Shown here piece after piece: positions 1,085 through 34,095 of a stretch of DNA of 34,095 nucleotides; position 1 is the stretch's first letter, and every line of letters begins with the position of its first letter. Position numbers and translations under genes: made by a program. Where the stretch lies: contig JAXLQJ010000071.1 in assembly GCA_046331705.1 (NCBI GenBank), positions 1 through 34,095 on the forward strand. The letters run 5' to 3'. Source of the DNA: a bacterium (lineage in GTDB: Bacteria > JADJOY01). The notes below the pieces were generated by a model. The model saw only the letters and a list, made by a program, of their open reading frames with translations. It was not told where the DNA came from and did no database searches.

Positions 1085-1971
1085 CCGAAGTCGCCGGGGG
1101 GTGGGTGCAACCGCTGGTCGCGTCGATGCGCCCACACCAATGGGTGAAGAACGGGCTCTTGTTCGCCGCCATCGTCTTCGCGCAGAAGCTCGGCGATCCG
1201 CGCCGGGTGCTCACGGTGTGCGTCGCCTTCGCGCTGTGGTGCCTGATGGCGAGCGCCGTCTACCTGTGGAACGACCTCTTCGACCTCGAGGAGGACCGTC
1301 ATCACCCCGAGAAGGCGAGCCGCCCCATCGCGAGCGGTGCCTTGCCCGTGGCGCTGGCGCGCAAGGCTTGCGCGGTGCTGACCGCGGCGGCGCTGGTGGG
1401 TGCCTTCGCGCTCGACGGGCGGTTCGGCGTGGTGATGCTCGTGTATGCGTTCATGAACGTCGCGTACACGATCCGGCTCAAGCACGTGGTGATCCTCGAC
1501 GTCATGACGCTCGCCGCCGGCTTCGTGCTGCGGGCGGTGGGTGGTGGCGTGGTGATCCACGTCGAGGTGTCGCCGTGGTTGGTGATCTGCACGATCCTCT
1601 TGGCGCTCTTCCTGGGCTTCGGCAAGCGTCGCCACGAGCTGGTGCTGCTCGAGGGACGGGCCGCCGAGCACCGCAAGATCCTCGACGAGTACAGCCCTTA
1701 TTTCCTCGACCAGATGATCTCGGTGGTCACCGCATCCACGGTGGTCGCGTATTGCCTCTACACGCTTTCCCCCGAGGTCGCGAGCAAGTTGCACGTGCGG
1801 CACCTCTATCTCACGGTGCCGTTCGTGCTGTACGGGATCTTCCGCTATCTCTACCTGGTGCACCAGAAAGGGCAGGGGGGAAACCCGTCGAAGGTGTTGT
1901 TGACGGACCCCCCCCTCATCACTACGATTGCGCTCTGGTTGCTGACCGCGACGATCATTCTCTACCGCTGA
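1081..1971 (+). CDS. UbiA-family decaprenyl/polyprenyl-phosphate phosphoribosyltransferase
   Basis: GTG start overlaps the PHP stop (GTGA); motifs MRPHQWVKN, YLWNDLFDLEEDRHHPEKASRPIASG, LFLGFGKRRHEL, PFVLYGIFRYLYLV; multiple hydrophobic segments. Confidence 0.88.
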   Translation: MTEVAGGWVQPLVASMRPHQWVKNGLLFAAIVFAQKLGDPRRVLTVCVAFALWCLMASAVYLWNDLFDLEEDRHHPEKASRPIASGALPVALARKACAVLTAAALVGAFALDGRFGVVMLVYAFMNVAYTIRLKHVVILDVMTLAAGFVLRAVGGGVVIHVEVSPWLVICTILLALFLGFGKRRHELVLLEGRAAEHRKILDEYSPYFLDQMISVVTASTVVAYCLYTLSPEVASKLHVRHLYLTVPFVLYGIFRYLYLVHQKGQGGNPSKVLLTDPPLITTIALWLLTATIILYR

Positions 1972-2053
1972 TCGTCGCCACGAATTCACGTCTCTTCCGA
2001 GCGAGCGAAGCCGGGATCCTGTCGTCGCGTCCTGCAGTGCTTCGCCACACCTC

Positions 2054-2671
2054 ATGAGCGAGCGTCCCGAGCGAAGCGCGACGTCGGCCGCGCCGGTTCC
2101 CGCCACCCGCGCCGTCGGCAAGGACGGCCGCGAGCACCCGAAGCGCGCCGCCGACACCTCGCCGGTGGACGTGGATCAATTGCTCTCCTCCGTGCGTGCT
2201 CGGCTCGAGAGCGGCCGGGACCCCGGCGCGCCATCGGAACCCGCGGCGCCCGCCACCGTCCGTGAGGCGCGAGCCGGCGACGCGCCGCTGCCCGCGGAGG
2301 CGCTGGCGCGGAGCTTCGAGCTCTTGAAGCGCGCGGGCCCACTCGACCCCAAGCTACCCATCCAATCGCATCGCGCGCTCGTCGGGCCGCTCATCGTGGG
2401 CGTGAAGGCGTTGCTGCGACGGCTGCTGTCGCCCGCGTTCTCGGCGCTCTTCGAGCACCAGGCGCGCTTCGACCAAGCCTCGATCGACTACGGCGACGAG
2501 GTCTATCGACGCATCGTCGGCATGGAAGCGGACCTGCGCACGCGACTCGAGCGCGTCGAGGCTCGCCACGCGCTCGAGCTCGAGACGATCGAACGCCGGC
2601 TCGGGCGGCTCGAAAGCCTCGTGAGCGCCCCTGCCGACGCGCCGCCGCCGAGGTCTCGGGACGGCGGATGA
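2054..2671 (+). CDS. Hypothetical glycan-cluster protein with amphipathic helix and C-terminal coiled coil
   Basis: Motif SHRALVGPLIVGVKALLRRLL...QARFD followed by heptad-like LRTRLERVEARHALELETIERRLGRLESL; stop overlaps next ATG (ATGA). Confidence 0.7.
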   Translation: MSERPERSATSAAPVPATRAVGKDGREHPKRAADTSPVDVDQLLSSVRARLESGRDPGAPSEPAAPATVREARAGDAPLPAEALARSFELLKRAGPLDPKLPIQSHRALVGPLIVGVKALLRRLLSPAFSALFEHQARFDQASIDYGDEVYRRIVGMEADLRTRLERVEARHALELETIERRLGRLESLVSAPADAPPPRSRDGG

Positions 2672-4959
2672 CCACGCCCGTTCCGATCCACCAATTCCTT
2701 CCCACGCTCAACCCGGGCGACGCCATCGGGAACGTGACGCGCGCGATGCGCGACGCGATGCGCGCGCTCGGGCACCCCTCGGAGATCTTCGCCGAGAACG
2801 TGGACCCCTCGCTCACCGGCGAGGCCCATCGCTATCAGGACTATCCGCACTTCGAGGATCCGCGAAACGTGATCCTCTACCACTACAGCGTGGCGTCGGT
2901 GCTGAGCGAGTTCCTACGGCTCACCTGGGAGCGCAAGGTCCTCATCTACCACAACGTGACGCCGCCGCATTTCTACGACGGGCTCGAGCCGCACATTCGC
3001 GCGGTGCTTTCCCGCAGCGAGGACGAGCTCAAGAGCCTCGTCCCCGTGACCGACCTGGCGGTCGGCGACTCGGGCTTCAACTGCGCCGAGCTCGAGCGCT
3101 TCGGCTTCCGCGACCCGCAGGTGCTGCCGATTCTCCTCGACCTGCACAAGCTCGAGCGCGAGATGGACGGCGACACGCTCATCGACGAGTCGGGCGCCGA
3201 GCACCGCATCCTGTTCGTGGGCAAGCTCGGACCGAACAAGCGGTTCGAGGACCTCATGGTGTGCTTCGAGCACTACCGGCGCACCCGCGACCCCAAGGCC
3301 AAGCTGGTGTTGATCGGTGGCTCGTTCAGCCCGCTCTACGAGGAGCGGCTGCGCGCGCTCAAGCACAAGCTCGGCCCCGACTCGATCGTGCTCAAGGGCG
3401 CCGTCTCCCAAGGAGTGCTGAACGCCTATTACCGCAAGGCCGCGCTCTTTCTCTGTCTCAGCGATCACGAGGGCTACTGCGTGCCGCTGGTCGAGTGCAT
3501 GTACCTCGGCCTGCCGGTGGTGGCGTATCGCCACCCCGGCGTCGAGTGGACGCTCGGTGGCAGCGGCGTGCTCCTCGACCGCAAGGATCCCGAGACCGTG
3601 GCGGCCGCGATGGAGCACGTGCTCACCGATGCCGCGTTTCGCAAGCAGGTGGTGGACGGCCAGAAGAAGCGCCTCGAGGAGCTCTCGCCCACGCGGGTCA
3701 AGGCGCGGCTCGCCGAGATCCTGGATCGCGTGCTGGCGCTGCCCGTGCGCAAGCCCAGGATCGCGTTCGTGGTCCAGCGCTACGGTGCCGAGGTGAGCGG
3801 CGGTAGCGAGGCGCATTGCCGGCTGGTCGCCGAGCATCTGCGCGACAAGGCCGAGGTCGAGGTGCTCACCACCACCGCGCTCGACTACGAGACCTGGCGC
3901 GATCACTTTCCCGCGGGTCCCGCGGAGGTGAACGGCGTGCGCGTGGAGCGCTTCCCGGTGCTGGCGACCCGAGAGTTGGCAAGCTTCTCGGTGCAGAGCG
4001 AGCGGTTCTTCGCGGAGCCGGTGCGAACCATCGCGGACGAGGCGCGCTGGATCGTGGAGCAGGGCCCGTTCGCCCCGGCGCTGGTGGATGCCGTCAGCGA
4101 GCGCTTCGATCGCGTCGACGCCTTCGTCTTCTTCACGTACCTCTACTACCCGACGGTCCTGGGGCTCTTGCGCGCCGGGCACAAGGGCTTGCTCGTCCCC
4201 ACCGCCCACGACGAGGTGCCGTTTCACTTCCGCGCCGTCCAGACCGCGCTCAAGCGCGCGGCGGGGATGATCTTCAACACCGAGGAAGAGCGCGCGCTGA
4301 TCGAAGGCACACAGGGCGGCGCACGCGGGATCGGGATCATCACGGGTGTCGGGATCGAGGAGCCCGAGGGCTACTCGGCGGCGCGGTTTCGCGAGCGCAC
4401 CGGCATCGAGCGGCCGTTTCTGCTCTACGTGGGGCGGATCAGCGCCGCGAAGGGATGTCTGCAGATCCTCGACTTCTACTCGGTCATGCGCGCGAGCTGG
4501 CCCGAGGCACCGGAGCTGGTGTTCATCGGCAAGGGCGACATCGATCTCGAGGGTCGTCCCGGAGTGCACGCCTTGGGCTTCGTCCAGGAGGAGCGCGAGA
4601 AGTTCGATGCCCTCGCCGCGGCGATTGCGCTGGTGAATCCGTCGCCGATGGAAAGCCTGTCGATGGTGCTCCTGGAAGCGTGGTTGGCGGGCACGCCCAC
4701 GCTCGCCAACGCCGCGTGTCCAGCCCTCGTCGGCCAGAGTCGCCGCTCGAAGGCGGGGCTCTGGTACGGCTCGTACGAGGAGTTCGAGGCATTGGTGCGC
4801 TTGCTGGCCGGCGACGCGGAGCTGCGCGCGCGCCTCGGCCGCGCGGGTCGCGAGTTCGTTCGCGGCCACTACCACTGGGACCTGATCGTCCACAAATACC
4901 TGGTGGCGCTGCGCTACCTCGCGCTCGACGCGCGGGCGCCCGCGGCGGAGGCGGCGTGA
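2668..4959 (+). CDS. Two-domain (tandem) GT4 glycosyltransferase
   Basis: Two GT-B units, each with a E-x7-E motif (HEGYCVPLVE; MESLSMVLLE) and ILFVGK / LLYVGRI strands. Confidence 0.9.
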   Translation: MTTPVPIHQFLPTLNPGDAIGNVTRAMRDAMRALGHPSEIFAENVDPSLTGEAHRYQDYPHFEDPRNVILYHYSVASVLSEFLRLTWERKVLIYHNVTPPHFYDGLEPHIRAVLSRSEDELKSLVPVTDLAVGDSGFNCAELERFGFRDPQVLPILLDLHKLEREMDGDTLIDESGAEHRILFVGKLGPNKRFEDLMVCFEHYRRTRDPKAKLVLIGGSFSPLYEERLRALKHKLGPDSIVLKGAVSQGVLNAYYRKAALFLCLSDHEGYCVPLVECMYLGLPVVAYRHPGVEWTLGGSGVLLDRKDPETVAAAMEHVLTDAAFRKQVVDGQKKRLEELSPTRVKARLAEILDRVLALPVRKPRIAFVVQRYGAEVSGGSEAHCRLVAEHLRDKAEVEVLTTTALDYETWRDHFPAGPAEVNGVRVERFPVLATRELASFSVQSERFFAEPVRTIADEARWIVEQGPFAPALVDAVSERFDRVDAFVFFTYLYYPTVLGLLRAGHKGLLVPTAHDEVPFHFRAVQTALKRAAGMIFNTEEERALIEGTQGGARGIGIITGVGIEEPEGYSAARFRERTGIERPFLLYVGRISAAKGCLQILDFYSVMRASWPEAPELVFIGKGDIDLEGRPGVHALGFVQEEREKFDALAAAIALVNPSPMESLSMVLLEAWLAGTPTLANAACPALVGQSRRSKAGLWYGSYEEFEALVRLLAGDAELRARLGRAGREFVRGHYHWDLIVHKYLVALRYLALDARAPAAEAA

Positions 4960-24138: not shown

Positions 24139-26784
24139 GTGAAGTCGAGCCATCGCGATGCGTTGCGTGGCGTCGTCACGACGTCCGCGCTCGGCGTGTT
24201 GCTGGTGCTGGGCGCGCTGCAGGTCGTCGTGCCGGCAGGCGTCGGCACGGGGGCCATCGAGAGCGCGGGGACGAGTGGCGCGTGGCCCGAGGGCTCCTGG
24301 TCGTTCCAGATCGCTTGGCTTCGGCTGGTTCCCGTCGCGGTTCTCCTCGGTTGCGCGTTCCAGGTTGCGGTGCTGCTGGCCTTGCTTCGGGCTTCCGTCG
24401 GAGCACCGGACGGGGCGGGGGAGGTAGACGCCGAGCACGGCCTTGCGGCCCTGAAGCGCCTGCCGCTGCTGTCGTTGCTGGCGACGCTCGGCGGCTGGGC
24501 GGCGAGCGCAGGCATCGTCGCCGCGCGAGTCCGATCGGCGGCGAATCCAGCGATCGGCGCTCCCGCCGCGCTGGCGCTCACCGTGCTCGCCGTGGGCGTC
24601 GCGGTGGCCCCGCTTCGCTACTACGCCACGCGCGCCGCTCTCCGACGTCGCTTTCGAGATGGGATTGAACCCGCGGCGAGCGCCACGGCGCCGCTCGCGG
24701 CCGCGAGCCTGCCGTTGCGCGTCAAGCTCTGGCTGGGCGTGGTGCTGCCGAGCTTCGCGGTGCTGGTCCTCGTCGCCTGCGCGACGCTCGCGCTGGGCGC
24801 TCGAGCGAGCTTCGAGGCGGCGCGCTGGCACGTCGACGAGTCGGCGCACCAGCTGGCCGGGCTGGTGGATGCCGCGGTGCGCAAGCTCGAGCTCCCTGGC
24901 GCCGCGGCGCAGCGCGCCGCCAGCGAGCTCATGAATCAGCTCGATCGCCGGGCCGCGCAGGGCGAGCTCGCCCTGGTGGACCGCGCCGGCCGAGTGATCG
25001 CGGGACGGCTGGCGCTCCTCGATCCACGGCGCGCGCTCGCCGCCCTGGAGAACGGCGTCGCGGTCTCGCGGCTCGGCGAACCCGTGGCGAGCGGCGCGAA
25101 GCTGGACACCGCCGATCTGTGGTTGATCGTGGTGCAGCCATCGCCCGTGGCGGGCGTGTTCACGAGCCTGCTCGATCCACGCGTCGGGTTGCTCGGCCTG
25201 GCCGGCACCTTCTGGCTGCTCGCGCTCGCTTGGCTCGCGGCGCGCGACGTGGTGAGCGATGCAGCCATGATCCGCTCCCGGGTGGCCGATCTGGCGGCGC
25301 ACGGGAGCACGCCCACCCGGCTGGCCGACTTCCTGCTCGACGACGAGCTGGCGGCGGCCAGTGGCGCGATCCAGGACGTGGCCCACGAGCTGCGACGGCA
25401 GCATCGACGCCAGACCAAGCTCGCCAGCGCGTACGAGTCGAGCGCGCAACGGGCCAAGCAGCTCGCGCGCGAGGCGATGGCGGCGTTCCGCGACTCCCTC
25501 GCACGAGTCGACGGGACACGCCGCGCGGTCGTCGAGCTCGACGAGGCCGGGAACGCGCTCGCCGAGCTCTGGACGAGCGTGGCGCGAAACGTGAGCGCCG
25601 TGGCGCCGCTCAGCTCCGCGACCGCGCTCGCGCTCGAGGGAACGCTGGCGACGTGCGATCAGATGGCGCGCGACGTGAACGACGCCCGCGCGCGGATCGC
25701 CGAGCTGGTTGCGGCGGCGCGGCCCGTCCTGGAGTCGGCGCAAGCGCTCCGCGCGACGGCGGAATCGGCGACCAGCGCCGCGGCGGTCGCCGAGGATCTG
25801 CAGCGCGCGCTCACCCGCGAGATCCGAGCGTCGCGCGAGGGCATGCAGCCGCTCGAGGACCAGGCGCGCGTCGTGGAACGCGCCCTCGCGACCGCCAGCG
25901 AGCGCGGCGATCGCGTGCGCGTGGCGATGGGTGACGTCGGCCAGGCCGTGCACCGGATCGAGGAAGCGGTGGGCGGCGTGGCGCACAGCATCGCGGTGAT
26001 GGAGGAGATCGCCGATCGCAGCGCGCTGCTGGCGGTCAACGTCGCGATCCTCGCGGCGCGCTCGGGGGCGGGAGCAGGGGGCTTCGGGATCGTCGCCGAC
26101 GAGATGCGAGACCTGGCGCAGCGCGCGGGCGACGGCGTTCGGGAAGCGGGCGGCACCGCCGCAGCGCTGAGCCGCGACACCCACGCAGCCGTGCTCGGAG
26201 TCGAGGCGGTGCTCGCGCGCCTCGAGCAAGCGGCCGCTGGGGTGCGCGAGGCGCGCGCCGCCAGTCACGACCTCGGCGGCGTCGTTGCCCTGGCCACGGC
26301 CGCCGCCGAGCGCATCGAGGAGACGGTGGCCAGGGGTGCCGCCGACACGTTGCGCGCGCGCGAGCAGCTCGATCTCCTGGTGACCACGGGCCAGCGAATG
26401 CTCGTCGGACAGGAACCGATGGCGGCCGAGCTGGACCGCAGCGTCGCCGTGGACACCGTGCTGCGCATGGCGAGCGCCGAGCTGAGCGGCTCGATTCGGT
26501 CGGCGCTGGCGCGCGGGCGAGATCGGCTGCGCGAGCCGATGCTCGCCGCCGAAGGCGTCGAGCGGGTGTCCGCCCTCACGCGCCAGGTGCGGCAGCTCGT
26601 GAGTGGAATCGTGTCCAGCGCGAGCGGTGCCGACGAAGCGTCCGTGCGCGCGCTGAGCCAGCTCGAGGCCTCGATCGCCGAGCTCGAGCGCGCCAGTCGA
26701 CCGCACGCCGAGGCGGCGGAAGCGAGCGCCGCTGCGAATGCCAACGCGCCCGGTGAACGGTCCGAATCGTCGCGTTTCACCTAG
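24139..26784 (+). CDS. Multi-TM methyl-accepting chemotaxis-like protein with degenerate signalling tip
   Basis: About six hydrophobic segments, HAMP-like DDELAAAS, long Ala-rich coiled coil with EIADRSALLAVNVAILAARSGAGAGGFGIVADEMRDLAQR; start codon uncertain. Confidence 0.75.
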   Translation: MKSSHRDALRGVVTTSALGVLLVLGALQVVVPAGVGTGAIESAGTSGAWPEGSWSFQIAWLRLVPVAVLLGCAFQVAVLLALLRASVGAPDGAGEVDAEHGLAALKRLPLLSLLATLGGWAASAGIVAARVRSAANPAIGAPAALALTVLAVGVAVAPLRYYATRAALRRRFRDGIEPAASATAPLAAASLPLRVKLWLGVVLPSFAVLVLVACATLALGARASFEAARWHVDESAHQLAGLVDAAVRKLELPGAAAQRAASELMNQLDRRAAQGELALVDRAGRVIAGRLALLDPRRALAALENGVAVSRLGEPVASGAKLDTADLWLIVVQPSPVAGVFTSLLDPRVGLLGLAGTFWLLALAWLAARDVVSDAAMIRSRVADLAAHGSTPTRLADFLLDDELAAASGAIQDVAHELRRQHRRQTKLASAYESSAQRAKQLAREAMAAFRDSLARVDGTRRAVVELDEAGNALAELWTSVARNVSAVAPLSSATALALEGTLATCDQMARDVNDARARIAELVAAARPVLESAQALRATAESATSAAAVAEDLQRALTREIRASREGMQPLEDQARVVERALATASERGDRVRVAMGDVGQAVHRIEEAVGGVAHSIAVMEEIADRSALLAVNVAILAARSGAGAGGFGIVADEMRDLAQRAGDGVREAGGTAAALSRDTHAAVLGVEAVLARLEQAAAGVREARAASHDLGGVVALATAAAERIEETVARGAADTLRAREQLDLLVTTGQRMLVGQEPMAAELDRSVAVDTVLRMASAELSGSIRSALARGRDRLREPMLAAEGVERVSALTRQVRQLVSGIVSSASGADEASVRALSQLEASIAELERASRPHAEAAEASAAANANAPGERSESSRFT

Positions 26785-26889
26785 CGCCGAGTGTCAAGTC
26801 CGCCCGATCCACTCGGGCGCACGTGGTCTCCCGCCGATTCAAGCCTCCATAATCACGGGCTTTTCCGCGAACTTTCCGAACGGTGCCGC

Positions 26890-26905
26890 TGGCATCCCGG
26901 TTGCT
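26890..26905 (+). promoter_or_regulatory. Sigma54 (-24/-12) promoter
   Basis: TGGCATCCCGGTTGCT: GG and GC separated by exactly 10 nt, matching TGGCAC-N5-TTGC; 36 nt before ATG 26942. Confidence 0.72.
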
Positions 26906-26941
26906 TTCCTCGGTGGTGGGGGAGACGCCCGGAGATGCCCG

Positions 26942-27367
26942 ATGCCGAGTAACCGAACGCACGCGCTCGCCACGCGCGAAACCACCAAGAGTCGCGCCGC
27001 GCGGCGCGGGACGAGAGTGGCGGAGCCGACCAGCGCCGGGCCGACACCCGCGGAGCTGCGCAAGGAGCTCGCCGAGCTACCGGTGCAGGTGCGACGTCAG
27101 AGCTGGCAGATTCAGTTTCTCGTCGAGGAGCTGCGCAGCGTCTCCACCGATGTCGAGCGGAACGTGATCCTCGACTGGCTCGACGACGCGAAGCGCAAGC
27201 GCAACGAGCTCGAATCCACGCTGCGCGAACGGCAAGCGCTCTACGAGGGCCTCATGCGACAGCGGCGCCGCCGCACGGCGGGCGCGCGTCATCGCCCGAG
27301 CGCGAAGGGTGCCGATGCCGGGGCCGCCGTGGCGATTCGCGCGGTGAGCGCGACGAAACGCGGCTGA
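26942..27367 (+). CDS. Hypothetical basic protein with central helical hairpin
   Basis: GGAG 7 nt before ATG; 141 aa; amphipathic helices LRKELAELPVQVRRQSWQIQFLVEELR / VILDWLDDAKRKRNELESTLRERQALYEGL; Arg-rich ends. Confidence 0.65.
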   Translation: MPSNRTHALATRETTKSRAARRGTRVAEPTSAGPTPAELRKELAELPVQVRRQSWQIQFLVEELRSVSTDVERNVILDWLDDAKRKRNELESTLRERQALYEGLMRQRRRRTAGARHRPSAKGADAGAAVAIRAVSATKRG

Positions 27368-27582
27368 GCCTCGGGGCGCAGCGGGCTTCCAGGTCGACGG
27401 ACGATCGCGCCCGATCGCACTGGGTAGCGGGTCCGGCGTCCTTCCGCCGTCGCTCGCTCCCGATCGTCCGCTCGTCGCCCGCGCGATCTCGCCTTCCCGC
27501 GGAACGCGTTCGGTGCGCGTGTCTCGCCGTCGCTCACGGCCCGCAGTATTCTGCCCGCGGAGTCCACCCGAACTCGGCGCGC

Positions 27583-27897
27583 ATGAGCTCGACACCGCAT
27601 TCCTTCGCAGCCACGATCGGGCTCACGCTCCTCGTCGCCGCTTTCTCGGCGCGGTCCGCGCTCGCCGCGCCGCCCGTGGCGCCCGGTGCAGCGACGCCGA
27701 TCACGCTCGGCAGCCCCGCCGTCGATTTCTCGGTCGGCAGCGCCGGGGTGGGCAGCGACGCGGCGGTCTATTTCTGGATCGACCAGAGCGGCGTGACGCA
27801 CTTCACCGACGAGCCGGGTGAGTTCGGCAAGCGCTATCGCGACTTCTTCCGTCCCATCGATCTCTTCGTCAACACGGCAGGCCAGCCGAAGCGGTGA
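27583..27897 (+). CDS. Small exported protein with DUF4124-like motif
   Basis: Signal-peptide-like N-terminus (IGLTLLVAAFSARSALA), motif VYFWIDQSGVTHFTDEP. Confidence 0.65.
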   Translation: MSSTPHSFAATIGLTLLVAAFSARSALAAPPVAPGAATPITLGSPAVDFSVGSAGVGSDAAVYFWIDQSGVTHFTDEPGEFGKRYRDFFRPIDLFVNTAGQPKR

Positions 27898-27927: not shown

Positions 27928-29259
27928 GTGACTCGCCCGCACCCGCCATCGATCGCGGGACGCGTGCGGGCGTGGCTCGGCGCGCGACTCGGCGCCCGTG
28001 GAGTGCGCCTTCGATTCGAGGCGTTCGGCGGGGTGATCGCCCTCGAGCGGCCGCCGCTGCTGGCCTTCGTCGACCGCGACTTCCTGCGTCGGCTGGGCTT
28101 CGGTGAGCAACCAGTCTGGAAATCCTCGCGAACCCAGCTCAGCGCTCCCACGGAAGTCCACCTCACGCTGACCCGTGCGTGTCCCGTCGGCTGTCGCGGC
28201 TGCTACGTCGACGCGGCGGCGCCCGCGCCGGGCGAGCTCTCGACGGCGCAGGTCTGCGCGTTGCTCGACGATCTCGCAAGCGCCGGCGTGCTGCACGTCG
28301 CCATGGGGGGCGGCGAGTCGTATCTGCGCCCGGATCTCTTCACGCTTGCGGCCCACGCCCGCGAGCGAGGGATGGTGCCGAACGTGACCACCAGCGGGCT
28401 GGGCATGACCGCGGAGCTGGCCAAGCGTTCGCGCGTGTTCGGCCAGGTGAACGTGAGCGTCGATGGCTGCGAAGGCTGGGACGACGCCGCCGGCCGACCC
28501 GCGGGTTCCTGGCGGACCGCCGCGAGCGCCTTGGCACTGCTGCGCGCTGCGGGGGTGCGGGCGGGCGTCAACTGCGTCGTCACGCGACACAACGTGGATC
28601 GCCTCGAGACGCTGGCCCGCGCCGTGCGCGCCCTCGGCGTGCGCGAGATCGAGTTCCTGCGGCTCAAGCCCACCGGTCGCGGCGCGGTCGACTACGCCCG
28701 CCTGGTGCTGACTCCCGCTCAGGCGCGCGCGGTCTATCCGCTCGTCCTCGGGCTCGCTCGCTCCGCGCGGATCCGGCCTCGCATCGACTGCTCGTTCCTG
28801 CCGATGGCGTGTCATCACCGACCCGATCCCGAACGGATGCGCTTGCTGGGCATGCTGGGATGCGAGGCTGGGCATCATCTGGCTTCCGTCGACTCGGTGG
28901 GACGCGTGCACGCTTGCAGCTTCCTCGACGATGGCCAGGTGCTCGCCGGCGGGCTCGCGGCCGAGTGGGACGCGGCCGACGCGCTGGTGCGCTACCGGAG
29001 CTTCAAGAGCGTTGCGCCGGAGCCGTGCCGCTCGTGCGAGTACCTCGACGTCTGCGGCGGCGGCTGCCGAGCGGTGGCGCGATTCGTCTCGGGAGACGCG
29101 CTCAGCCCCGATCCGGAATGCCCACGGGTCGAGGATTGGCGCGCGCGGCAGGACCCCGGCTCACCCACGCTCGCGCGGCGCGACGAGCTCCTCGTCGACC
29201 CAGCGCACCAGGCTGCCCACGCAGGCGATCCCGTCGTGTCGCCACATCATCGAGGGTAA
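27928..29259 (+). CDS. Radical SAM enzyme with SPASM domain (MftC/PqqE-like)
   Basis: CPVGCRGC (CxxxCxxC), MGGGE, VSVDG, GCEAG..VHACSF, CRSCEYLDVCGGGCR, DPECP. Confidence 0.9.
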   Translation: MTRPHPPSIAGRVRAWLGARLGARGVRLRFEAFGGVIALERPPLLAFVDRDFLRRLGFGEQPVWKSSRTQLSAPTEVHLTLTRACPVGCRGCYVDAAAPAPGELSTAQVCALLDDLASAGVLHVAMGGGESYLRPDLFTLAAHARERGMVPNVTTSGLGMTAELAKRSRVFGQVNVSVDGCEGWDDAAGRPAGSWRTAASALALLRAAGVRAGVNCVVTRHNVDRLETLARAVRALGVREIEFLRLKPTGRGAVDYARLVLTPAQARAVYPLVLGLARSARIRPRIDCSFLPMACHHRPDPERMRLLGMLGCEAGHHLASVDSVGRVHACSFLDDGQVLAGGLAAEWDAADALVRYRSFKSVAPEPCRSCEYLDVCGGGCRAVARFVSGDALSPDPECPRVEDWRARQDPGSPTLARRDELLVDPAHQAAHAGDPVVSPHHRG

Positions 29260-30612
29260 GCCGGCGAGCCCGGGGCGCGTGATGCGCGTGACACCCAGCG
29301 CCGCCAACGCGCGTGCGAGCGCCACGCGGCGCTCCTCGCATGCCTCGATGCACGCCACCTGAAGGTGGGCGCCGGCGGGTCGGACGCGATCGACGACGTC
29401 CTCGATCGTCGGCACCGACACGATCCGCACGAATCGCCCACGCGGCGCCGGCGCGAGCGACGCCGCGTCCTCCAGCACCACCGCGAAGCCGGGCGCATCG
29501 GCGATCACCTCGACGGCTTCCCCCGCCGCGCCGCGAAGCGCCAGGGTGTCGAGCGATTGCCGAAAGCGCGCGCGATCGCCGAGCGGAAGGCGTGCAGGCG
29601 GGAGGCGCTCGGCCCACACGCACATGGCGTCGGCCACCGCGTGGGCGAACGCGCGCGGCGAACCCTCCCCCCCGGCCTCGACGAACGCCAGCTGCGGGCT
29701 CAGGCACGCCTCCCGGTCGAAGAGCGAGAAATCGTACGCGACGCGATCGGCGAGCTCTCGAACGTCGCCCGCCAACGCCTCGCGTCCGATCGCCGTGAAC
29801 CCGAGTCGATGGCCGTGCCAGGTCGCGCGCTTGCCCACCGGCACGCGGCGCGCGAGCCCGGCGAGCGCGGCCGTGCCGCCGTACGCGATCAGGTGCTCGC
29901 TGTGCTCGAGGAACGCGTCGAGGAGCGCGGCGTGGTCGGGATCGAAGTCCACGATCGCGAGCGCCGCCCCGAGCTCGCCGTCGACGCGCGCCAGCGTGCG
30001 CGCGAAGAGCGGCAGGAAGATCGGCTCGTCTCGCGAGCTGCGGATCCAGCACGCCGATTTGACGAGCAGCGCGCGGGTCGCGATCAGGTGCGGAAGCCCC
30101 GGGATGTTGGCGCTCGCGATGCCGCCGACCAGCAGCGGCGCGACGGCGTGGCGCCGCCCGCCGAGCGCCGGGTCGTCGACGAAGCCGTCGAGGACACCGG
30201 CGCCACCGAGCTCGGAGCGCAGCGCGCGCTCGAGGTGAGGGCCAAGGCTCGACTCGAACTCGAGGTCGAGGGCATGCGCGACCATGGGCGCGGAAAAGCC
30301 CGTCCACGCGGCGATCGCCTCGATGGCCGTGCGACGCTCGGGCGTCGCCGGATCGAGCCAGAGCCGCGCCACCCGATCCAGGGCGGCGATGATCGAGGCC
30401 ACGGGGCGCAGTCGCAGCCGGTCGCGCGCCTCGGTCGCGAGCACCGTCGCGACCTGGGCGAGTTCCGCGCGGCCGAGCCCGACCCGCCGCAGCGTGAGCG
30501 AAACACCCGCCGGGCCGCGCCGCTCGACGGTTTCGACCTGCGCCGCGACGTTCGCGAGTGCCGCGACCCGCGGCGGGAGCCAGCAGGTGTCGAGGAGTTC
30601 GGCGACGCTCAC
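29161..30612 (-). CDS. LuxC-like acyl-CoA/acyl-protein reductase
   Basis: GTG overlaps the luxE-like stop; IASANIPG, ALLVKS, IAYGGTAA, FDREACLSPQ (catalytic Cys), GVTRITRPG, WRHDG. Confidence 0.85.
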   Translation of the reverse strand: MSVAELLDTCWLPPRVAALANVAAQVETVERRGPAGVSLTLRRVGLGRAELAQVATVLATEARDRLRLRPVASIIAALDRVARLWLDPATPERRTAIEAIAAWTGFSAPMVAHALDLEFESSLGPHLERALRSELGGAGVLDGFVDDPALGGRRHAVAPLLVGGIASANIPGLPHLIATRALLVKSACWIRSSRDEPIFLPLFARTLARVDGELGAALAIVDFDPDHAALLDAFLEHSEHLIAYGGTAALAGLARRVPVGKRATWHGHRLGFTAIGREALAGDVRELADRVAYDFSLFDREACLSPQLAFVEAGGEGSPRAFAHAVADAMCVWAERLPPARLPLGDRARFRQSLDTLALRGAAGEAVEVIADAPGFAVVLEDAASLAPAPRGRFVRIVSVPTIEDVVDRVRPAGAHLQVACIEACEERRVALARALAALGVTRITRPGLAGLPSMMWRHDGIACVGSLVRWVDEELVAPRERG

Positions 30613-31751
30613 GAGCCTGCCTGCGCGGCGCGCCAGTCCTCGAGATCGAGCGAGCACCCGCGGGCCTCCGCACCCGCGGCGCGCCCCAGGATCTCGAAGC
30701 GGCCGTCCGGGAATGCCACTCCCACGTCGTCGCTCTGGACGCAGAGCGGCCGCTCGACGTTGGCGAGATCGAGGTGGCGCAGCACGCCGATCTCGCCGCG
30801 AGGCAACGGCTCGCCGCGCTCGGGGTCGACGACCCAGGTGCGAGCCCAGGGTGCCGGCTCCTTGCCGCGCGACCTCGACCCGTCTCCCGCCAGCGAATCC
30901 GCCAGCATGCCGTCGTAGTGCTGGCTCGCGAGCTCGGTCATGCCGAGCAGGTTGATGCAGCGGTCCGACGGGATGCCGAGAAGCTCCGCGACCCGCGCAC
31001 GCACGACCGAGCCATCGATCGGTGCGCCCTCCCGCTTGGCGCCACCGGCGTGCATCACGCGACTTCCCACCGGCAGACGGAAGGGGCGACCACGCGCCGC
31101 CGTGGCATCGAGGATCGCCACCAGCGCCGACGATGCGCCGGCGAGCGTGACGGGAACCGCATCGGCCTCGGCGCCGGCGAGCGCGGCGGCCACGCGCGCC
31201 ACGTCGAGGCCCGCCGGGCCGACACAGAACTCGCTGCCGGCCGAGCCGAACCGCTCGATGAGGTGTGCGATCCCGTAGGCCATGATGCGCTCGGGATCGG
31301 CGGTGGGCGAGGGCGCGAGCGCGAGGATTCGCGTCCCGAGCGCGTCGGGAAAGAGCATCGCGCCGGCGCGGACCTCGATCGCGACGTCCATGAGCGCCAA
31401 TCCCTCGCGGGAAAAGCACGCTTCACCACGAGCGGCACCGCTGGTGCCGCTGGTGCGAAAGACGCGGACGACGTCGGCATCGTCACCGGCGAAGAGACGC
31501 AGCTGCTTGAACGCCTCGGTGGGAACGGCGGGGATGTCGGCGAGGGTGCGAACGGACGTGGCCTCGACGCCGCGAGTGCCGCACCAGCGTCCGTACGCGG
31601 GAATCGCCCGACACTGGAACGCGAAGACCTCGCGCGCCAGCTCGTCCCAGTCGACGACGGGAGCGCCCGGGCGGGTACCGCTCGCGCGAATCGCGTCCGC
31701 GACACGCTCGGTGAGCACGGCGCGCTGCGCGGCGATGGAGGTCCCGTTCAT
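30609..31751 (-). CDS. LuxE-like acyl-protein synthetase
   Basis: IPAVPTEAFK, FRTSGTSG, LGMTELASQ, LDLAN..VQSDDVG, FEILGRAAGAEARGCS (acyl-accepting Cys). Confidence 0.87.
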   Translation of the reverse strand: MNGTSIAAQRAVLTERVADAIRASGTRPGAPVVDWDELAREVFAFQCRAIPAYGRWCGTRGVEATSVRTLADIPAVPTEAFKQLRLFAGDDADVVRVFRTSGTSGAARGEACFSREGLALMDVAIEVRAGAMLFPDALGTRILALAPSPTADPERIMAYGIAHLIERFGSAGSEFCVGPAGLDVARVAAALAGAEADAVPVTLAGASSALVAILDATAARGRPFRLPVGSRVMHAGGAKREGAPIDGSVVRARVAELLGIPSDRCINLLGMTELASQHYDGMLADSLAGDGSRSRGKEPAPWARTWVVDPERGEPLPRGEIGVLRHLDLANVERPLCVQSDDVGVAFPDGRFEILGRAAGAEARGCSLDLEDWRAAQAGS

Positions 31752-31763
31752 CGCGGGTCTCGT

Positions 31764-33074
31764 TCAGACGCCAGCCGCGATCGCAGGCGCCGCTGGATCG
31801 CGATGCAGCGCAAGCTCGCGGCCGTGCACTCCCGCGCGAACCGCGGTACGCACGTCGTCGCTCGACACGCCGACGGAGACGGCGAGGCGCGCGAGCGGCA
31901 CGTCGTCTCGAGCGAGCTGTTCGGTGAGCGCACGGGCCGCCGCGCCCGCGAGGTGTCGGGAGAAGAGCTCTTCCGCTCGCGCGGCGTCGCCCACGAGCAC
32001 CGCGACGCTGTCGAGCGGCGGCAGCCACCGTGGGGACGCGGACGTGGGGATGGGCCGCGCCGAGCCGCGATACGCGAAGAGATCGGGCTCCTCGCCGAAC
32101 TTGCACACATGGGCGTGCCGGTGGGCGCCGAATCCCGCGGCCACACCGTCCCCCAACGCGGTCAACGTGGCCGCGTACCGGCCCGTGACGTCGCCGGCGG
32201 CGAACACACCCGGCGCCGTCGTCGCGCCATTCGCGTCGACGTGGAGGAAGCCGTTGGGGTCACGACGCACGCCCAGCGCATCGAGCCCGGCGAACGAGAT
32301 CGCGGGCTCGATCTCGAAGCCGTGATAGTCGAGGAACACGGCGCTGCACGCGATCTCCGCCGTCCCGTCGGCGGTCTCGGCGAGGATGGCCTCCACGGCC
32401 GTGGCGCCGCGGAGCCCCCGCAATCGTCCGTCGAGCTGGCGGCCGGGCCACCGTGCCGGCGGCGCGGCGGGCGCCGCGCGACCCGCCGGCTCGATCAGCC
32501 AGGTCACGGCCGTGCGGCCCTCGTCCCTGGCGAGCAACGGGATCAGCAGTGCGCTGTGGGCGTTCCCGACGATCACGAGCCCGCGCTCTCGGCCCAGCTC
32601 GAGCGCCCGCGCCAGCAGCGCTTCCAGGTGAGCGCGACCCTTCATCGCGATCAGCACGCTCGCGGGGAAGAAGCGTTGCTCGTCGCCGAGCGCGCGAAAT
32701 CCCGGCGCCAGCACCGCGGACAGGCATTGGTACACGCGGCTCCCCGCGTGGATCCGAAGTAGCGCGCCCACGCGTTCGATGCGCTCGACGCGCTCGGGTA
32801 CGTGCGGGATCGAGAGAGCCGCGATGTCGGTGGTGAGCCGCGTCACCAGCTCGTCGCCACCCAGCGCCCAGCCGGGACCGGTGAGGACGCACGAGCCGAA
32901 ACGACCCAGGCCACCGAGCGGCGCGGGGTCGAACACCACCACGCTCGACGGAAAGGGATCGAAGCCCTTGACCCAGCGCACGCGAATCGCCGCGGCCAGT
33001 CCCGCCGGGCCACCGCCGACCACGGCCACGTCGTAGTCGTAGGGCGTTCGCCCGGATCGAAGCGCGACGGTCAC
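31764..33074 (-). CDS. FAD-dependent oxidoreductase, thioredoxin-reductase fold without CxxC, with C-terminal extension
   Basis: YDVAVVGGGPAGLAAA, TTAPGVFAAGDVTG..ALGDGVAAG; GTG overlaps the leuD-like stop. Confidence 0.8.
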   Translation of the reverse strand: MTVALRSGRTPYDYDVAVVGGGPAGLAAAIRVRWVKGFDPFPSSVVVFDPAPLGGLGRFGSCVLTGPGWALGGDELVTRLTTDIAALSIPHVPERVERIERVGALLRIHAGSRVYQCLSAVLAPGFRALGDEQRFFPASVLIAMKGRAHLEALLARALELGRERGLVIVGNAHSALLIPLLARDEGRTAVTWLIEPAGRAAPAAPPARWPGRQLDGRLRGLRGATAVEAILAETADGTAEIACSAVFLDYHGFEIEPAISFAGLDALGVRRDPNGFLHVDANGATTAPGVFAAGDVTGRYAATLTALGDGVAAGFGAHRHAHVCKFGEEPDLFAYRGSARPIPTSASPRWLPPLDSVAVLVGDAARAEELFSRHLAGAAARALTEQLARDDVPLARLAVSVGVSSDDVRTAVRAGVHGRELALHRDPAAPAIAAGV

Positions 33075-33586
33075 CGCGACGGCTCCCGTAGCCAGGCGAG
33101 CAGACCGCCCGCCGCCAGCACCGCCTCGACGTAGGGGTCGCGCGGCAAGAGCGCGATCGACGACCCGCGATCGCACCGGATCAGGAGCCGCGCGGCGGGA
33201 TCGAGGTGCACCGACTCGTGAGTCGCGATGTCCACGTCGGGCGCGTCGGGATCGATCGTCCAGCACGGTAGGCCGCGGGCGATCGCGCTGCGCTGGAAGA
33301 TGCGGCCGAAGCTCCGCGCGACCACGGCGCGCACGCCGTTTTGCGACAGGGATTGCAGTGTCGTCTCGCGACTCGACCCGCAGCCGAAGTTCCGGCCGGC
33401 GACGATGATCCAGCTCGGGTCGGCGACGGCACCGGCCGCATTGTCGGCGAGGCCGGCCAGGAAGCCCCGCTGCACGTGCGCCGGATCGAGCGAGAAGAAT
33501 GCGGGCGGATGAAGCTGGTCGGCGTTGACGTGATCGCCGAACACGAGCGCGCGCGCGGCGGGGAAGGGTGCGACGGACGAAATCAT
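33071..33586 (-). CDS. LeuD/HacB-like aconitase-family dehydratase small subunit (divergent)
   Basis: FGDHVNADQLHP, IIVAGRNFGCGSSRE, VVARSFGRIF, VLAAGGLL. Confidence 0.88.
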   Translation of the reverse strand: MISSVAPFPAARALVFGDHVNADQLHPPAFFSLDPAHVQRGFLAGLADNAAGAVADPSWIIVAGRNFGCGSSRETTLQSLSQNGVRAVVARSFGRIFQRSAIARGLPCWTIDPDAPDVDIATHESVHLDPAARLLIRCDRGSSIALLPRDPYVEAVLAAGGLLAWLREPSR

Positions 33587-33605
33587 CGGGCGCGTCCGGT
33601 CGTGA

Positions 33606-34095
33606 TCACGCTGCCGAGGCCGGTGCCTTCGCCACGAGGAACGAACGGGGATCCGCGATCTCCCCCGCGATGGCCGACGCGGCCACGGTCGCGGCGCTCG
33701 CCAGCACGATCCGCGCGTCGCGATGACCCATTCGCCCAGGTCCGTTCCGATTCGAGGTGCTGATGCAGGTCTCGCCCGCGGCGAGGATGCCCTTGTCGAT
33801 CCCGCCGCACGCGCCACACGAGGAGTTGGTGATGAGCGCCCCCGCGGCGCTGAGCGCCTCGAGCGCACCGCTCGCGACGCTGGCGCGCCACACCCGCTCG
33901 CTCGCCGGAGTCACGATCAAGCGCACCCCGGGTGCCACCCGTCGTCCCCGCAGCACGCGCGCAGCGGCTTCGATCTCCTGGGCACGTCCCCCGGCACACG
34001 AGCCGATGAAGGCCTGCTGGATGCCGAGGCCGGCGAGCTCGCTGACGGGCACGACGTCGGCCGGCGAGCCGGGACGCGCGGCGAGCGGCACCAGC
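33606..34095 (-). CDS. LeuC/HacA-like aconitase-family dehydratase large subunit, 3' part (partial)
   Basis: FIGSCAGGR, SSCGACGG (three Fe-S Cys), STSNRN.GRMG, LASAATVAASAIAG. Confidence 0.9.
   Translation of the reverse strand, partial: LVPLAARPGSPADVVPVSELAGLGIQQAFIGSCAGGRAQEIEAAARVLRGRRVAPGVRLIVTPASERVWRASVASGALEALSAAGALITNSSCGACGGIDKGILAAGETCISTSNRNGPGRMGHRDARIVLASAATVAASAIAGEIADPRSFLVAKAPASAA

Follow-up and report, generated by a model that had tools for sequence, protein, structure and literature searches.

The stretch of bacterial DNA analysed here, 34,095 nucleotides long and referred to as the window throughout, is the whole of contig C71 of the host genome (G000; 8.2 Mb, about 70% G+C), and its last position, 34095, is the contig end and falls inside a LeuC-like gene. 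Together with a second contig of the same genome the window holds a unit of seven genes, which encode a B12-binding radical S-adenosylmethionine (SAM) enzyme, a synthase related to homocitrate synthase (HCS) and LeuA, the LeuC-like and LeuD-like subunits of an isomerase, a flavoprotein of the thioredoxin reductase (TrxR) fold, and homologues of LuxE and LuxC. We hold it to be fairly probable that the window carries the 3' five genes of a self-contained operon, in which alkylmalate-type synthesis, the LeuCD pair, the flavoprotein and the B12 enzyme would lead to an acid that LuxE and LuxC reduce to an aldehyde. The original prediction, that the operon builds an unusual carboxylic acid and reduces it to an aldehyde, is supported by the evidence set out below, the identity of both acid and aldehyde being something that we infer.

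An operon divided between two contigs

Read in the direction of transcription, the minus strand of the window carries the C-terminal 162 codons of the LeuC-like gene (33606..34095; Pfam call >34094..33606, Aconitase, E 1.6e-31), cut at the contig end, followed by the genes for the LeuD-like small subunit of 171 residues (33071..33586; Aconitase_C), the TrxR-fold flavoprotein of 436 residues, which binds flavin adenine dinucleotide (FAD; 31764..33074; Pyr_redox_2), the LuxE-like adenylating acyl-protein synthetase of 380 residues (30609..31751; Pfam LuxE, 48.1 bits against a cut-off of 24.9) and the LuxC-like acyl-thioester reductase of 483 residues (29161..30612; Pfam LuxC, 231 bits against a cut-off of 21). 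The high G+C content of the cassette region (70-74%) leads to crowded lists of open reading frames (ORFs), and the real genes were therefore separated by Pfam, which confirmed all five of the co-oriented genes originally proposed. The overlaps and gaps of 12-19 nt claimed for them likewise came out the same when the junctions were re-read in the sequence: LeuC and LeuD are separated by a 19-nt gap and the flavoprotein and LuxE by a 12-nt gap, and both the LeuD/flavoprotein and the LuxE/LuxC junctions are GTGA overlaps. Domain scanning furthermore bore out that luxA, luxB and luxD are not in view, since none of the ORFs in the window or in related loci has a luxA/B luciferase or luxD-type domain, the remaining genome not having been searched for luciferase.

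The assembly break thus falls in the middle of the operon, inside LeuC. With the orthologous locus of a relative as guide, the operon was found to resume at the start of contig C79 of the host genome, where the N-terminal part of the LeuC-like gene (C79:1-814, with its ATG at 814) encodes a product 69% identical to the orthologue of genome G002, and where it is preceded by the gene for the synthase, an HCS/LeuA-like protein with HMGL-like and HCS_D2 domains (C79:2079..823), and by that for the B12-binding radical SAM protein (C79:3794..2076). Beyond the latter come a divergent PilZ gene and then a fructose-bisphosphatase gene. The two contigs have the five letters CCAGC in common (34091-34095 of C71 and 1-5 of C79), and a join over these letters gives an in-frame LeuC of 432 residues, whereas a join without the overlap breaks the frame. 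In addition, a DNA contig of another sequencing run extends about 990 nt past the end of the window. We can conclude that the unit consists of seven genes, in the order B12 radical SAM enzyme, synthase, LeuC, LeuD, flavoprotein, LuxE and LuxC; the predicted operon of five genes was correct in its members but two short, and the LeuA/homocitrate-synthase-like gene that had been expected upstream is indeed there (C79:823-2079). The LeuB-like gene expected along with it is not, as a tblastn search with the three Iso_dh (LeuB-type) paralogues of the host genome, all of which lie on other contigs, gave no homologue in or near any cassette (28 loci, 425 kb).

Conservation, distribution and habitat

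The host phylum is represented in the genome collection by six species-level genomes, all of one family (GTDB), and the seven genes are found in the same order in 6/6 of them, that is in the host and in 5/5 relatives. These genomes are closely related, and conservation was therefore sought outside the phylum. A profile of 40 members of the flavoprotein family, the marker of the cassette, was run over 401 sampled Myxococcota genomes and matched 14 of them, 12 strongly, and the surroundings of all 14 matches were searched with eight proteins of the window. Seven loci (L097, L098, L102, L103, L104, L105 and L106) have all seven genes on one contig; the first cassette gene of L105 is cut by the contig start, and the two halves of the cassette are swapped in L104. 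Another two, L107 and L110, are interrupted by contig ends, and three genomes (G380, G208 and G280) have the flavoprotein-LuxE-LuxC module at the matched locus, with B12 enzyme and synthase together on a different contig. In these split genomes the flavoprotein stays with LeuD, LuxE and LuxC, as does LeuC in G380 and G208, the LeuC of G280 being found with the other module. The weaker matches, L108 and L109, are to the flavoprotein alone, and both genomes are without an orthologue of the B12 enzyme. Among 395 other sampled genomes, two of one family (G566 and G719) carry the full cassette and a third, G564, carries a variant that is discussed with the flavoprotein. The gene set is accordingly conserved elsewhere, in 12/401 Myxococcota and 2/395 other genomes, and is not a peculiarity of this locus, which would have spoken against the original prediction.

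The order is fixed and the GTGA start/stop overlaps recur across phyla, and LuxE and LuxC come after the flavoprotein in 14/14 further cassette genomes. Since the same order is found in 5/5 relatives of the phylum and in other phyla as well, the arrangement of the five genes exceeds chance. Outside the phylum the best conserved cassette protein is the B12 enzyme, with identities to that of the host of 49-59%, and of 52-57% when given between phyla, compared to 43-49% for the synthase, 43-54% for LeuC, 40-52% for LeuD, 36-45% for the flavoprotein, 40-49% for LuxE and 35-47% for LuxC. When a profile of the B12 enzyme was run over the same 401 Myxococcota genomes, its scores fell into two humps and exceeded 460 bits in exactly the 12 genomes with strong flavoprotein matches, so that the orthologues of the two proteins occur in the same genomes; paralogues of the B12 enzyme, scoring 210-330 bits, are found in 11 further genomes and as second copies in four of the twelve. 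A corresponding scan of genome contigs with the flavoprotein alignment gave at least 59 loci by way of generic FAD motifs, none of them a true relative; one of the records (L026, titled Sandaracinus and belonging to Myxococcota) served as centre for the genome search.

Pfam scans of the flanks show that the neighbouring genes vary between cassette loci, and the cassette is therefore self-contained. No transporter, aminotransferase or regulator recurs in these flanks, where only single cases of a TetR regulator, an acyl-CoA dehydrogenase, a hybrid kinase and an ABC-F protein were noted. The cassette tolerates insertions: in G566 (L126, C27 10451-14361) the flavoprotein and LuxE are separated by about 4 kb with genes on the opposite strand, for a beta-helix protein and one unknown protein, and a DUF4143 ATPase gene lies between the synthase and LeuC in G067 (L106, C170 3655-4896).

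DNA near-identical to the locus occurs in 19 runs of 12 studies, counting runs with at least half of the sampled words, or in 13 studies if an RNA run with a small share is included, the sources being activated sludge, wastewater, digesters, biofilm and a metagenome of unspecified origin. One metatranscriptomic run (X20) holds five contigs of 151-245 nt that are at least 99% alike to the window, of which three map to LeuC, to the junction of LeuD with the flavoprotein and to the flavoprotein itself, and two to 27322-27616, ahead of a DUF4124 gene and reaching into its start; the parts of the window without such contigs carry no meaning for expression. This is weakly suggestive of the cassette being expressed, which is possible.

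Catalytic features and the chemistry they suggest

The LuxE-like protein has a single match in the PDB, LuxE of the structure 7xc6 (chain E), in which its ...RGCSLDL segment aligns with the ...KGCSLSM segment (Cys364, ending at residue 368) of P. phosphoreum LuxE. The SGT(S)G loop is kept as well, and both SGT and Cys366, the latter 15 residues from the end, are invariant in 18 orthologues. The LuxC-like protein likewise has LuxC of 7xc6 (chain A) as its single PDB match, ACLSP aligning with ACFST, and its active-site C303 is invariant in 18 orthologues. According to PMC12041015, the C-terminal cysteine of P. phosphoreum LuxE (Cys364) carries the acyl thioester, and the acyl group is relayed by way of the LuxE and LuxC cysteines and then reduced with NADPH. 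As both cysteines are conserved in the cassette, the relay from adenylate via LuxE-thioester and LuxC-thioester to aldehyde is probably retained. A plain fatty acid is however probably not the substrate, an inference drawn from the fact that LuxE and LuxC are found in one operon with 2-oxo-acid enzymes.

The notion that the pair makes ordinary long-chain fatty aldehydes, for ether lipids, wax esters or alkanes, and merely lies beside an unrelated 2-oxo-acid module, stems from the observation that the only characterised LuxE/LuxC pair, as described in PMC12041015, reduces myristic acid. LuxE-LuxC pairs are moreover found alone in housekeeping contexts of other phyla (G038 and G035), and an acyl-CoA dehydrogenase gene lies ahead of the cassette in 2 loci. 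This function is nevertheless quite improbable, since it is in poor agreement with the GTGA overlaps and fixed order across phyla, with the placing of LuxE and LuxC after the flavoprotein in every further cassette genome, and with the fatty-acid LuxE and LuxC equivalogs (NCBIfam NF052244 and NF052251), which are far from being reached (54.9 against 550 and 59.4 against 750). The identity to the stand-alone pairs is furthermore only 24-36%, and the operon of G564 has a PaaK-like ligase ahead of the synthase and neither LuxE nor LuxC. That the two genes might be independent of their neighbours, a concern attached to the original prediction, is also answered by their overlapping codons and by their place beside the flavoprotein, and LeuD, in 14/14 further genomes. 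As for the stand-alone pairs themselves, they lie among housekeeping genes in unrelated small genomes, at 9655-12210 of L015 (G038:C8) and at 1708-3048 and 9757-12121 of L016 (G035:C2), and there is one genome in which the LuxE gene overlaps with that of a class I/II aminotransferase.

The metal ligands D19, H206 and H208 are retained in the synthase, which falls below the models of both enzyme types to which it is related, those of homocitrate synthase (TIGR02660, NifV, 328.5 against a cut-off of 462.9; TIGR02146, 233 against 414) and those of 2-isopropylmalate synthase (IPMS; best PRK00915.1-2, 311 against 517). Its Ser83 is invariant, the residue at this place being His in two solved HCS and Leu or Ile in four solved IPMS, and the position that matches Arg133 of T. 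thermophilus HCS varies between Q, R, N, F, E and S; His72 and Arg133 of the latter enzyme are the residues which we take to bind the distal carboxylate of 2-oxoglutarate. The translation of the LeuC-like gene holds the motifs GSCAGG and SCGACGG, whose cysteines are presumably the cluster ligands. The full-length G002 orthologue passes the NCBIfam models hacA_fam (388.4 against 385.7) and PRK00402 (410.9 against 385), and the homoaconitase models fail (HacA_Meth, 298 against 550; HacB, 72 against 230). In LeuD the motif GSSRE is invariant in 18 orthologues, and the recognition loop reads LHP(P/S)xF(F/Y)SLD, with the S and the L present in at least 17/18 orthologues; F(F/Y)SL is thus found where HacB of M. 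jannaschii has YLRT and LeuD has YLVY. The closest solved chain is the homoaconitase small subunit of M. jannaschii (2pkp, E 4.6e-19). A loop of this type sets the substrate preference, according to PMC7308503. Because the LeuD loop and the synthase pocket residue both differ from either type, homocitrate and isopropylmalate are both unlikely as substrates.

The possibility that LeuC and LeuD are simply the housekeeping leucine enzymes does not hold, since a separate and canonical LeuC is encoded next to a LeuD on contig C27 (TIGR00170, 642 bits; cut-off 560), and the cassette LeuC reaches only 172 against 560 on the same equivalog, as the cassette LeuD reaches only 34 against 116 on TIGR00171. 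Another candidate is a variant alpha-aminoadipate/homocitrate pathway, in which homocitrate synthase and homoaconitase would make a C6-C7 tricarboxylate or aminoadipate and LuxE and LuxC would act like the fungal aminoadipate reductase. Such a pathway requires the reduction of a carboxylate, as PMC12041015 has it, and the best NCBIfam match of the synthase, at 328.5 bits, is indeed the NifV-type homocitrate synthase, just as hacA_fam and 2pkp link LeuC and LeuD to homoaconitase. It is made very improbable, however, by the facts that the NifV score stays under its cut-off of 462.9, that Ser-Leu in the LeuD loop stands in the place of the Arg-Thr of HacB, that no LeuB-type gene is found in the 28 loci and no aminotransferase was named in the Pfam scans of the out-of-phylum flanks, that a patchy spread (12/401) is unfit for an essential amino-acid pathway, and that the B12 enzyme is left unexplained. 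The Ser of the synthase where solved HCS have His, and the lack of conservation at the Arg133 position, point the same way if these residues have the meaning given above. A route to pantoate, from citramalate via methylmalate, radical methylation and reduction, was considered separately and found to be unsupported, as a normal panB is present (332 bits against 207.6).

The B12 enzyme (L017, G000:C79 2076-3794) combines an N-terminal B12-binding domain (PF02310) with a radical SAM domain (PF04055), as seen in its orthologues. The CxxxCxxC motif is invariant in 14 sequences (C238, C242 and C245), and so are five further cysteines, C11, C287, C491, C495 and C514, which may make up another metal site. 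Among solved structures the enzyme comes closest to TokK (E 1.2e-5), OxsB and CysS, all with weak scores, and a search with the single sequence gave no match in the PDB. The best NCBIfam model, TIGR04190, gives 142 against a cut-off of 500, and the Protein Atlas matches are to generic 'B12-binding radical SAM' clusters only.

The flavoprotein belongs to a sharply bounded family, with 51 relatives (clusters) at E<=7.6e-51 in a set of 5.8 billion proteins and the next match at 2.3e-11, from which point on the matches are generic thioredoxin reductases. The family is also rare, as 103 of 1.84 billion representatives are found at E<=1e-30, and its named members come from Myxococcota and Acidobacteriota metagenome-assembled genomes (MAGs); a group of relatives of about 328 residues was seen in the same representative-protein search. 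The AlphaFold2 (AF2) model (pLDDT 90.8) has TrxR and TrxR-type ferredoxin-NADP reductase (FNR) as its best Foldseek matches (E about 1e-18, 17-24% identity). The FAD motifs (GGGPAG, FAAGD) do not vary, there is no CxxC pair, and the thioredoxin reductase equivalog is not reached (TIGR01292, 55.7 against 343). About 80 residues at the C-terminus form an additional domain, whose only structural matches are weak and winged-helix-like (TM <0.5).

Two functions may be envisaged for this protein, a redox step on an intermediate of the pathway or the delivery of electrons to the B12 enzyme. The latter, in which the flavoprotein would be a ferredoxin/flavodoxin-reductase-like donor within the same cassette and the same acid-to-aldehyde logic, and in which the LeuB step would be unneeded or borrowed from a housekeeping LeuB, is attractive in several respects: the Foldseek matches include TrxR-type FNR and ferredoxin-dependent TrxR-like proteins (2zbw, 6gas, 3lzw, 5ygq and 6gnc), the co-occurrence of flavoprotein and B12 enzyme is perfect in the 401 genomes, and three Iso_dh paralogues are available elsewhere in the genome. 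A paralogue of 328 residues, moreover, is encoded directly behind one B12 radical SAM gene and facing a second, with YcaO adjoining. This paralogue, which lacks the C-terminal domain and lies at 1055-7458 of L109 (G109:C360), has surroundings that look like a cluster for ribosomally synthesised and post-translationally modified peptides (RiPPs), and the same context is matched in only 1/401 Myxococcota genomes, the query's own. We nonetheless regard a donor function as unlikely, if by no means negligible, since neither ferredoxin nor flavodoxin is encoded in the cassette, since the flavoprotein has a degenerate NAD(P)H motif, and since the three split genomes keep the flavoprotein with LeuD, LuxE and LuxC and not with the B12 enzyme and the synthase.

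The variant found in G564 (genome 96% complete; locus 47% G+C) bears on the same question. The genes for a PaaK-like ligase, the synthase and LeuC are found at one contig end (L139, G564:C198, 3358-7080) and those for LeuD and the flavoprotein at another (L128, G564:C146, 7485-9174). The junctions overlap, including that of LeuD and the flavoprotein, and yet a search of this genome gave no B12-enzyme orthologue and no LuxE, nor is there a LuxC in the variant. The ligase, placed ahead of the synthase, gives 341 bits on TIGR02155 against a cut-off of 646. A DltB-like MBOAT gene lies divergently upstream of the variant operon. Synthase, LeuCD and flavoprotein can thus do without the B12 enzyme and are here, too, combined with an adenylating enzyme, and by analogy this suggests that they build an acid that an adenylating enzyme then activates. 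A flavoprotein acting on a pathway intermediate is therefore ranked above one that feeds electrons to the B12 enzyme.

With the flavoprotein placed on an intermediate, the following route may be proposed. The synthase would condense acetyl-CoA with a 2-oxo acid other than 2-oxoglutarate to a 2-substituted malate, which LeuCD would dehydrate and rehydrate to a maleate or a 3-substituted malate. The flavoprotein could then carry out the redox step otherwise made by LeuB, either as an oxidative decarboxylation or as a reduction of the ene-intermediate, to give the finished carboxylic acid, and the B12 enzyme could add a methyl group, or catalyse a different radical reaction, at an unactivated carbon of a precursor or intermediate. 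LuxE would adenylate the acid, hold it as a thioester on Cys366 and hand it to Cys303 of LuxC, which would reduce the acyl thioester with NADPH to the aldehyde. The product would be a small, probably methyl-branched aldehyde or aldehyde-acid and might serve as a specialised metabolite, a signal or a cofactor precursor. In its most specific form, as an alkylmalate pathway without LeuB, with the redox step made by the TrxR-fold flavoprotein, the methyl branch by the B12 enzyme and a small branched acid or diacid reduced by LuxE and LuxC, the proposal is tentative and rather less likely than not; ring closure of such an aldehyde-acid could give a molecule of the hydroxybutenolide or lactol type, which would be a diffusible signal or cofactor precursor of a new class, made by Myxococcota and by an uncultured wastewater phylum.

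Several points weigh against the favoured reading. Gene content, gene order, conservation, co-occurrence and retained catalytic residues are directly observed, and all cassette enzymes look intact, but every substrate, and likewise the order of the steps, is deduced. For the meaning given to the HCS pocket residues, a literature search aimed at it found no paper. It is also unusual for an aldehyde to be made without an enzyme in the cassette that consumes it. We know of no TrxR-fold flavoprotein that replaces LeuB or reduces maleates, the second nucleotide motif of the present one is degenerate (consensus VVVGNxKT, where the NADPH motif of thioredoxin reductase is GGGNSA), and the context of the L109 paralogue, by analogy, points to an electron-donor role instead. 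The conservation in 6/6 genomes of the phylum is that of close kin and adds little, and the split cassettes may in part be assembly breaks, most of the genomes being MAGs. Finally, no RNA contig bridges a gene junction by 31 nt, and the RNA contigs may come from DNA carried over into the library.

Next to the cassette, a radical SAM/SPASM enzyme gene on the plus strand (27928..29259; Pfam Radical_SAM) overlaps LuxC tail to tail at the 3' ends by 99 nt (29161-29259), and an overlap of about 80-100 nt is found in the five relatives of the phylum too. The SPASM domain was assigned by NCBIfam, the best matches being the mycofactocin maturase MftC (157 bits against a cut-off of 265) and StsB (128 bits). 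Directly upstream, and conserved in the relatives, lies a gene for a small protein of 104 residues with a DUF4124 motif (27583..27897, plus strand, from ORF and translation; Pfam DUF4124, E 1.2e-5), whose N-terminus (…LLVAAFSARSALA) looks like a signal peptide, and between this gene and a chemoreceptor gene there is a conserved ORF of 209 residues without a Pfam family (26738..27367, plus strand). The SPASM gene had rightly been described as converging on the operon, but it is not in the conserved set, as it adjoins LuxC in 6/6 genomes of the phylum and in 0/18 of the out-of-phylum loci searched; together with the DUF4124 gene and the 209-residue ORF it probably forms a neighbouring unit and is not part of the cassette. 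A joint function of the cassette and the SPASM enzyme in maturing a RiPP, with the 104-residue ORF ahead of the SPASM gene as the upstream partner, is suggested by the resemblance of the enzyme to peptide maturases and by its constant linkage to LuxC within the phylum. Such a function is hardly credible, since the gene is absent from all the out-of-phylum loci and lies on the other strand, since the small protein, with its signal-peptide-like N-terminus and DUF4124 motif, is not a typical precursor, and since enzymes of the HCS and LeuCD types have small acids as substrates. Otherwise the window is of housekeeping character, with pyrimidine genes, carB and genes for an aminotransferase, homoserine dehydrogenase, Hsp70, an enoyl-CoA hydratase, a MaoC-type dehydratase and the chemoreceptor.

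Comparison with known systems

All parts of the cassette come from known enzyme families, and what it does is to join synthase-isomerase chain-building to a carboxylate reductase of the LuxCE type; what is new in it is that LeuB is missing, that the flavoprotein belongs to a family of its own and that the B12 radical SAM enzyme is only remotely related to known ones. Full-text searches of open-access papers and bioRxiv gave no account of such a set of genes, two of the matches being uses of lux as a reporter. If the favoured reading is true, a flavoprotein would stand in place of the isopropylmalate-type dehydrogenase within a very conservative synthase-isomerase-dehydrogenase logic, LuxC and LuxE would have their first biosynthetic role outside fatty aldehyde supply, and a two-protein carboxylate reductase for a small acid, useful in biocatalysis, would be at hand. 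A compact and transferable cassette of seven genes would furthermore yield an unknown metabolite in Myxococcota and in a barely known activated-sludge phylum.

The closest parallel to the first part of the cassette is chain elongation by LeuABCD or by HCS, homoaconitase (HACN) and homoisocitrate dehydrogenase (HICDH), the systems compared being leucine, lysine via aminoadipate, coenzyme B, homophenylalanine (HphABCD) and the glucosinolate route of MAM, isopropylmalate isomerase (IPMI) and isopropylmalate dehydrogenase (IPMDH). In both cases a Claisen synthase of the HMGL type with HCS_D2 is followed by a two-subunit isomerase of the aconitase family. The cassette differs in having no Iso_dh dehydrogenase, the place of which in the gene order is taken by the TrxR-fold flavoprotein, and in having a LeuD loop and a synthase pocket that are unlike those of HCS/HACN as well as IPMS/IPMI, with no equivalog model passed. 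The flavoprotein in turn has the two-domain fold and the FAD motifs in common with low-molecular-weight thioredoxin reductase and TrxR-type FNR, but differs from both by the missing CxxC, the degenerate NADPH motif and the added C-terminal domain. The B12 enzyme resembles the class B cobalamin-dependent radical SAM methyltransferases TokK and CysS, and the non-methylating OxsB, in its B12 domain and core CxxxCxxC; the kinship is however very remote, and methyl transfer by the cassette enzyme is putative.

To our knowledge LuxE and LuxC are so far known only from the reduction of fatty acids for light emission. The cassette has both Pfam families and both thioester cysteines in common with the LuxC-LuxE complex of the lux system (7xc6), whereas its locus is without luxA/B and luxD and its equivalog scores are about one tenth of the cut-offs. 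The net reaction, the reduction of a free acid to an aldehyde at the expense of ATP and NADPH, is established for carboxylic acid reductases (CARs) and for LuxE/LuxC alike, and in this respect the cassette also resembles CAR and the fungal Lys2. A CAR is, however, a single polypeptide with a phosphopantetheine arm and a reductase domain of the short-chain dehydrogenase/reductase (SDR) type, whereas the cassette has two proteins, a cysteine relay and a reductase of the aldehyde dehydrogenase (ALDH) fold.

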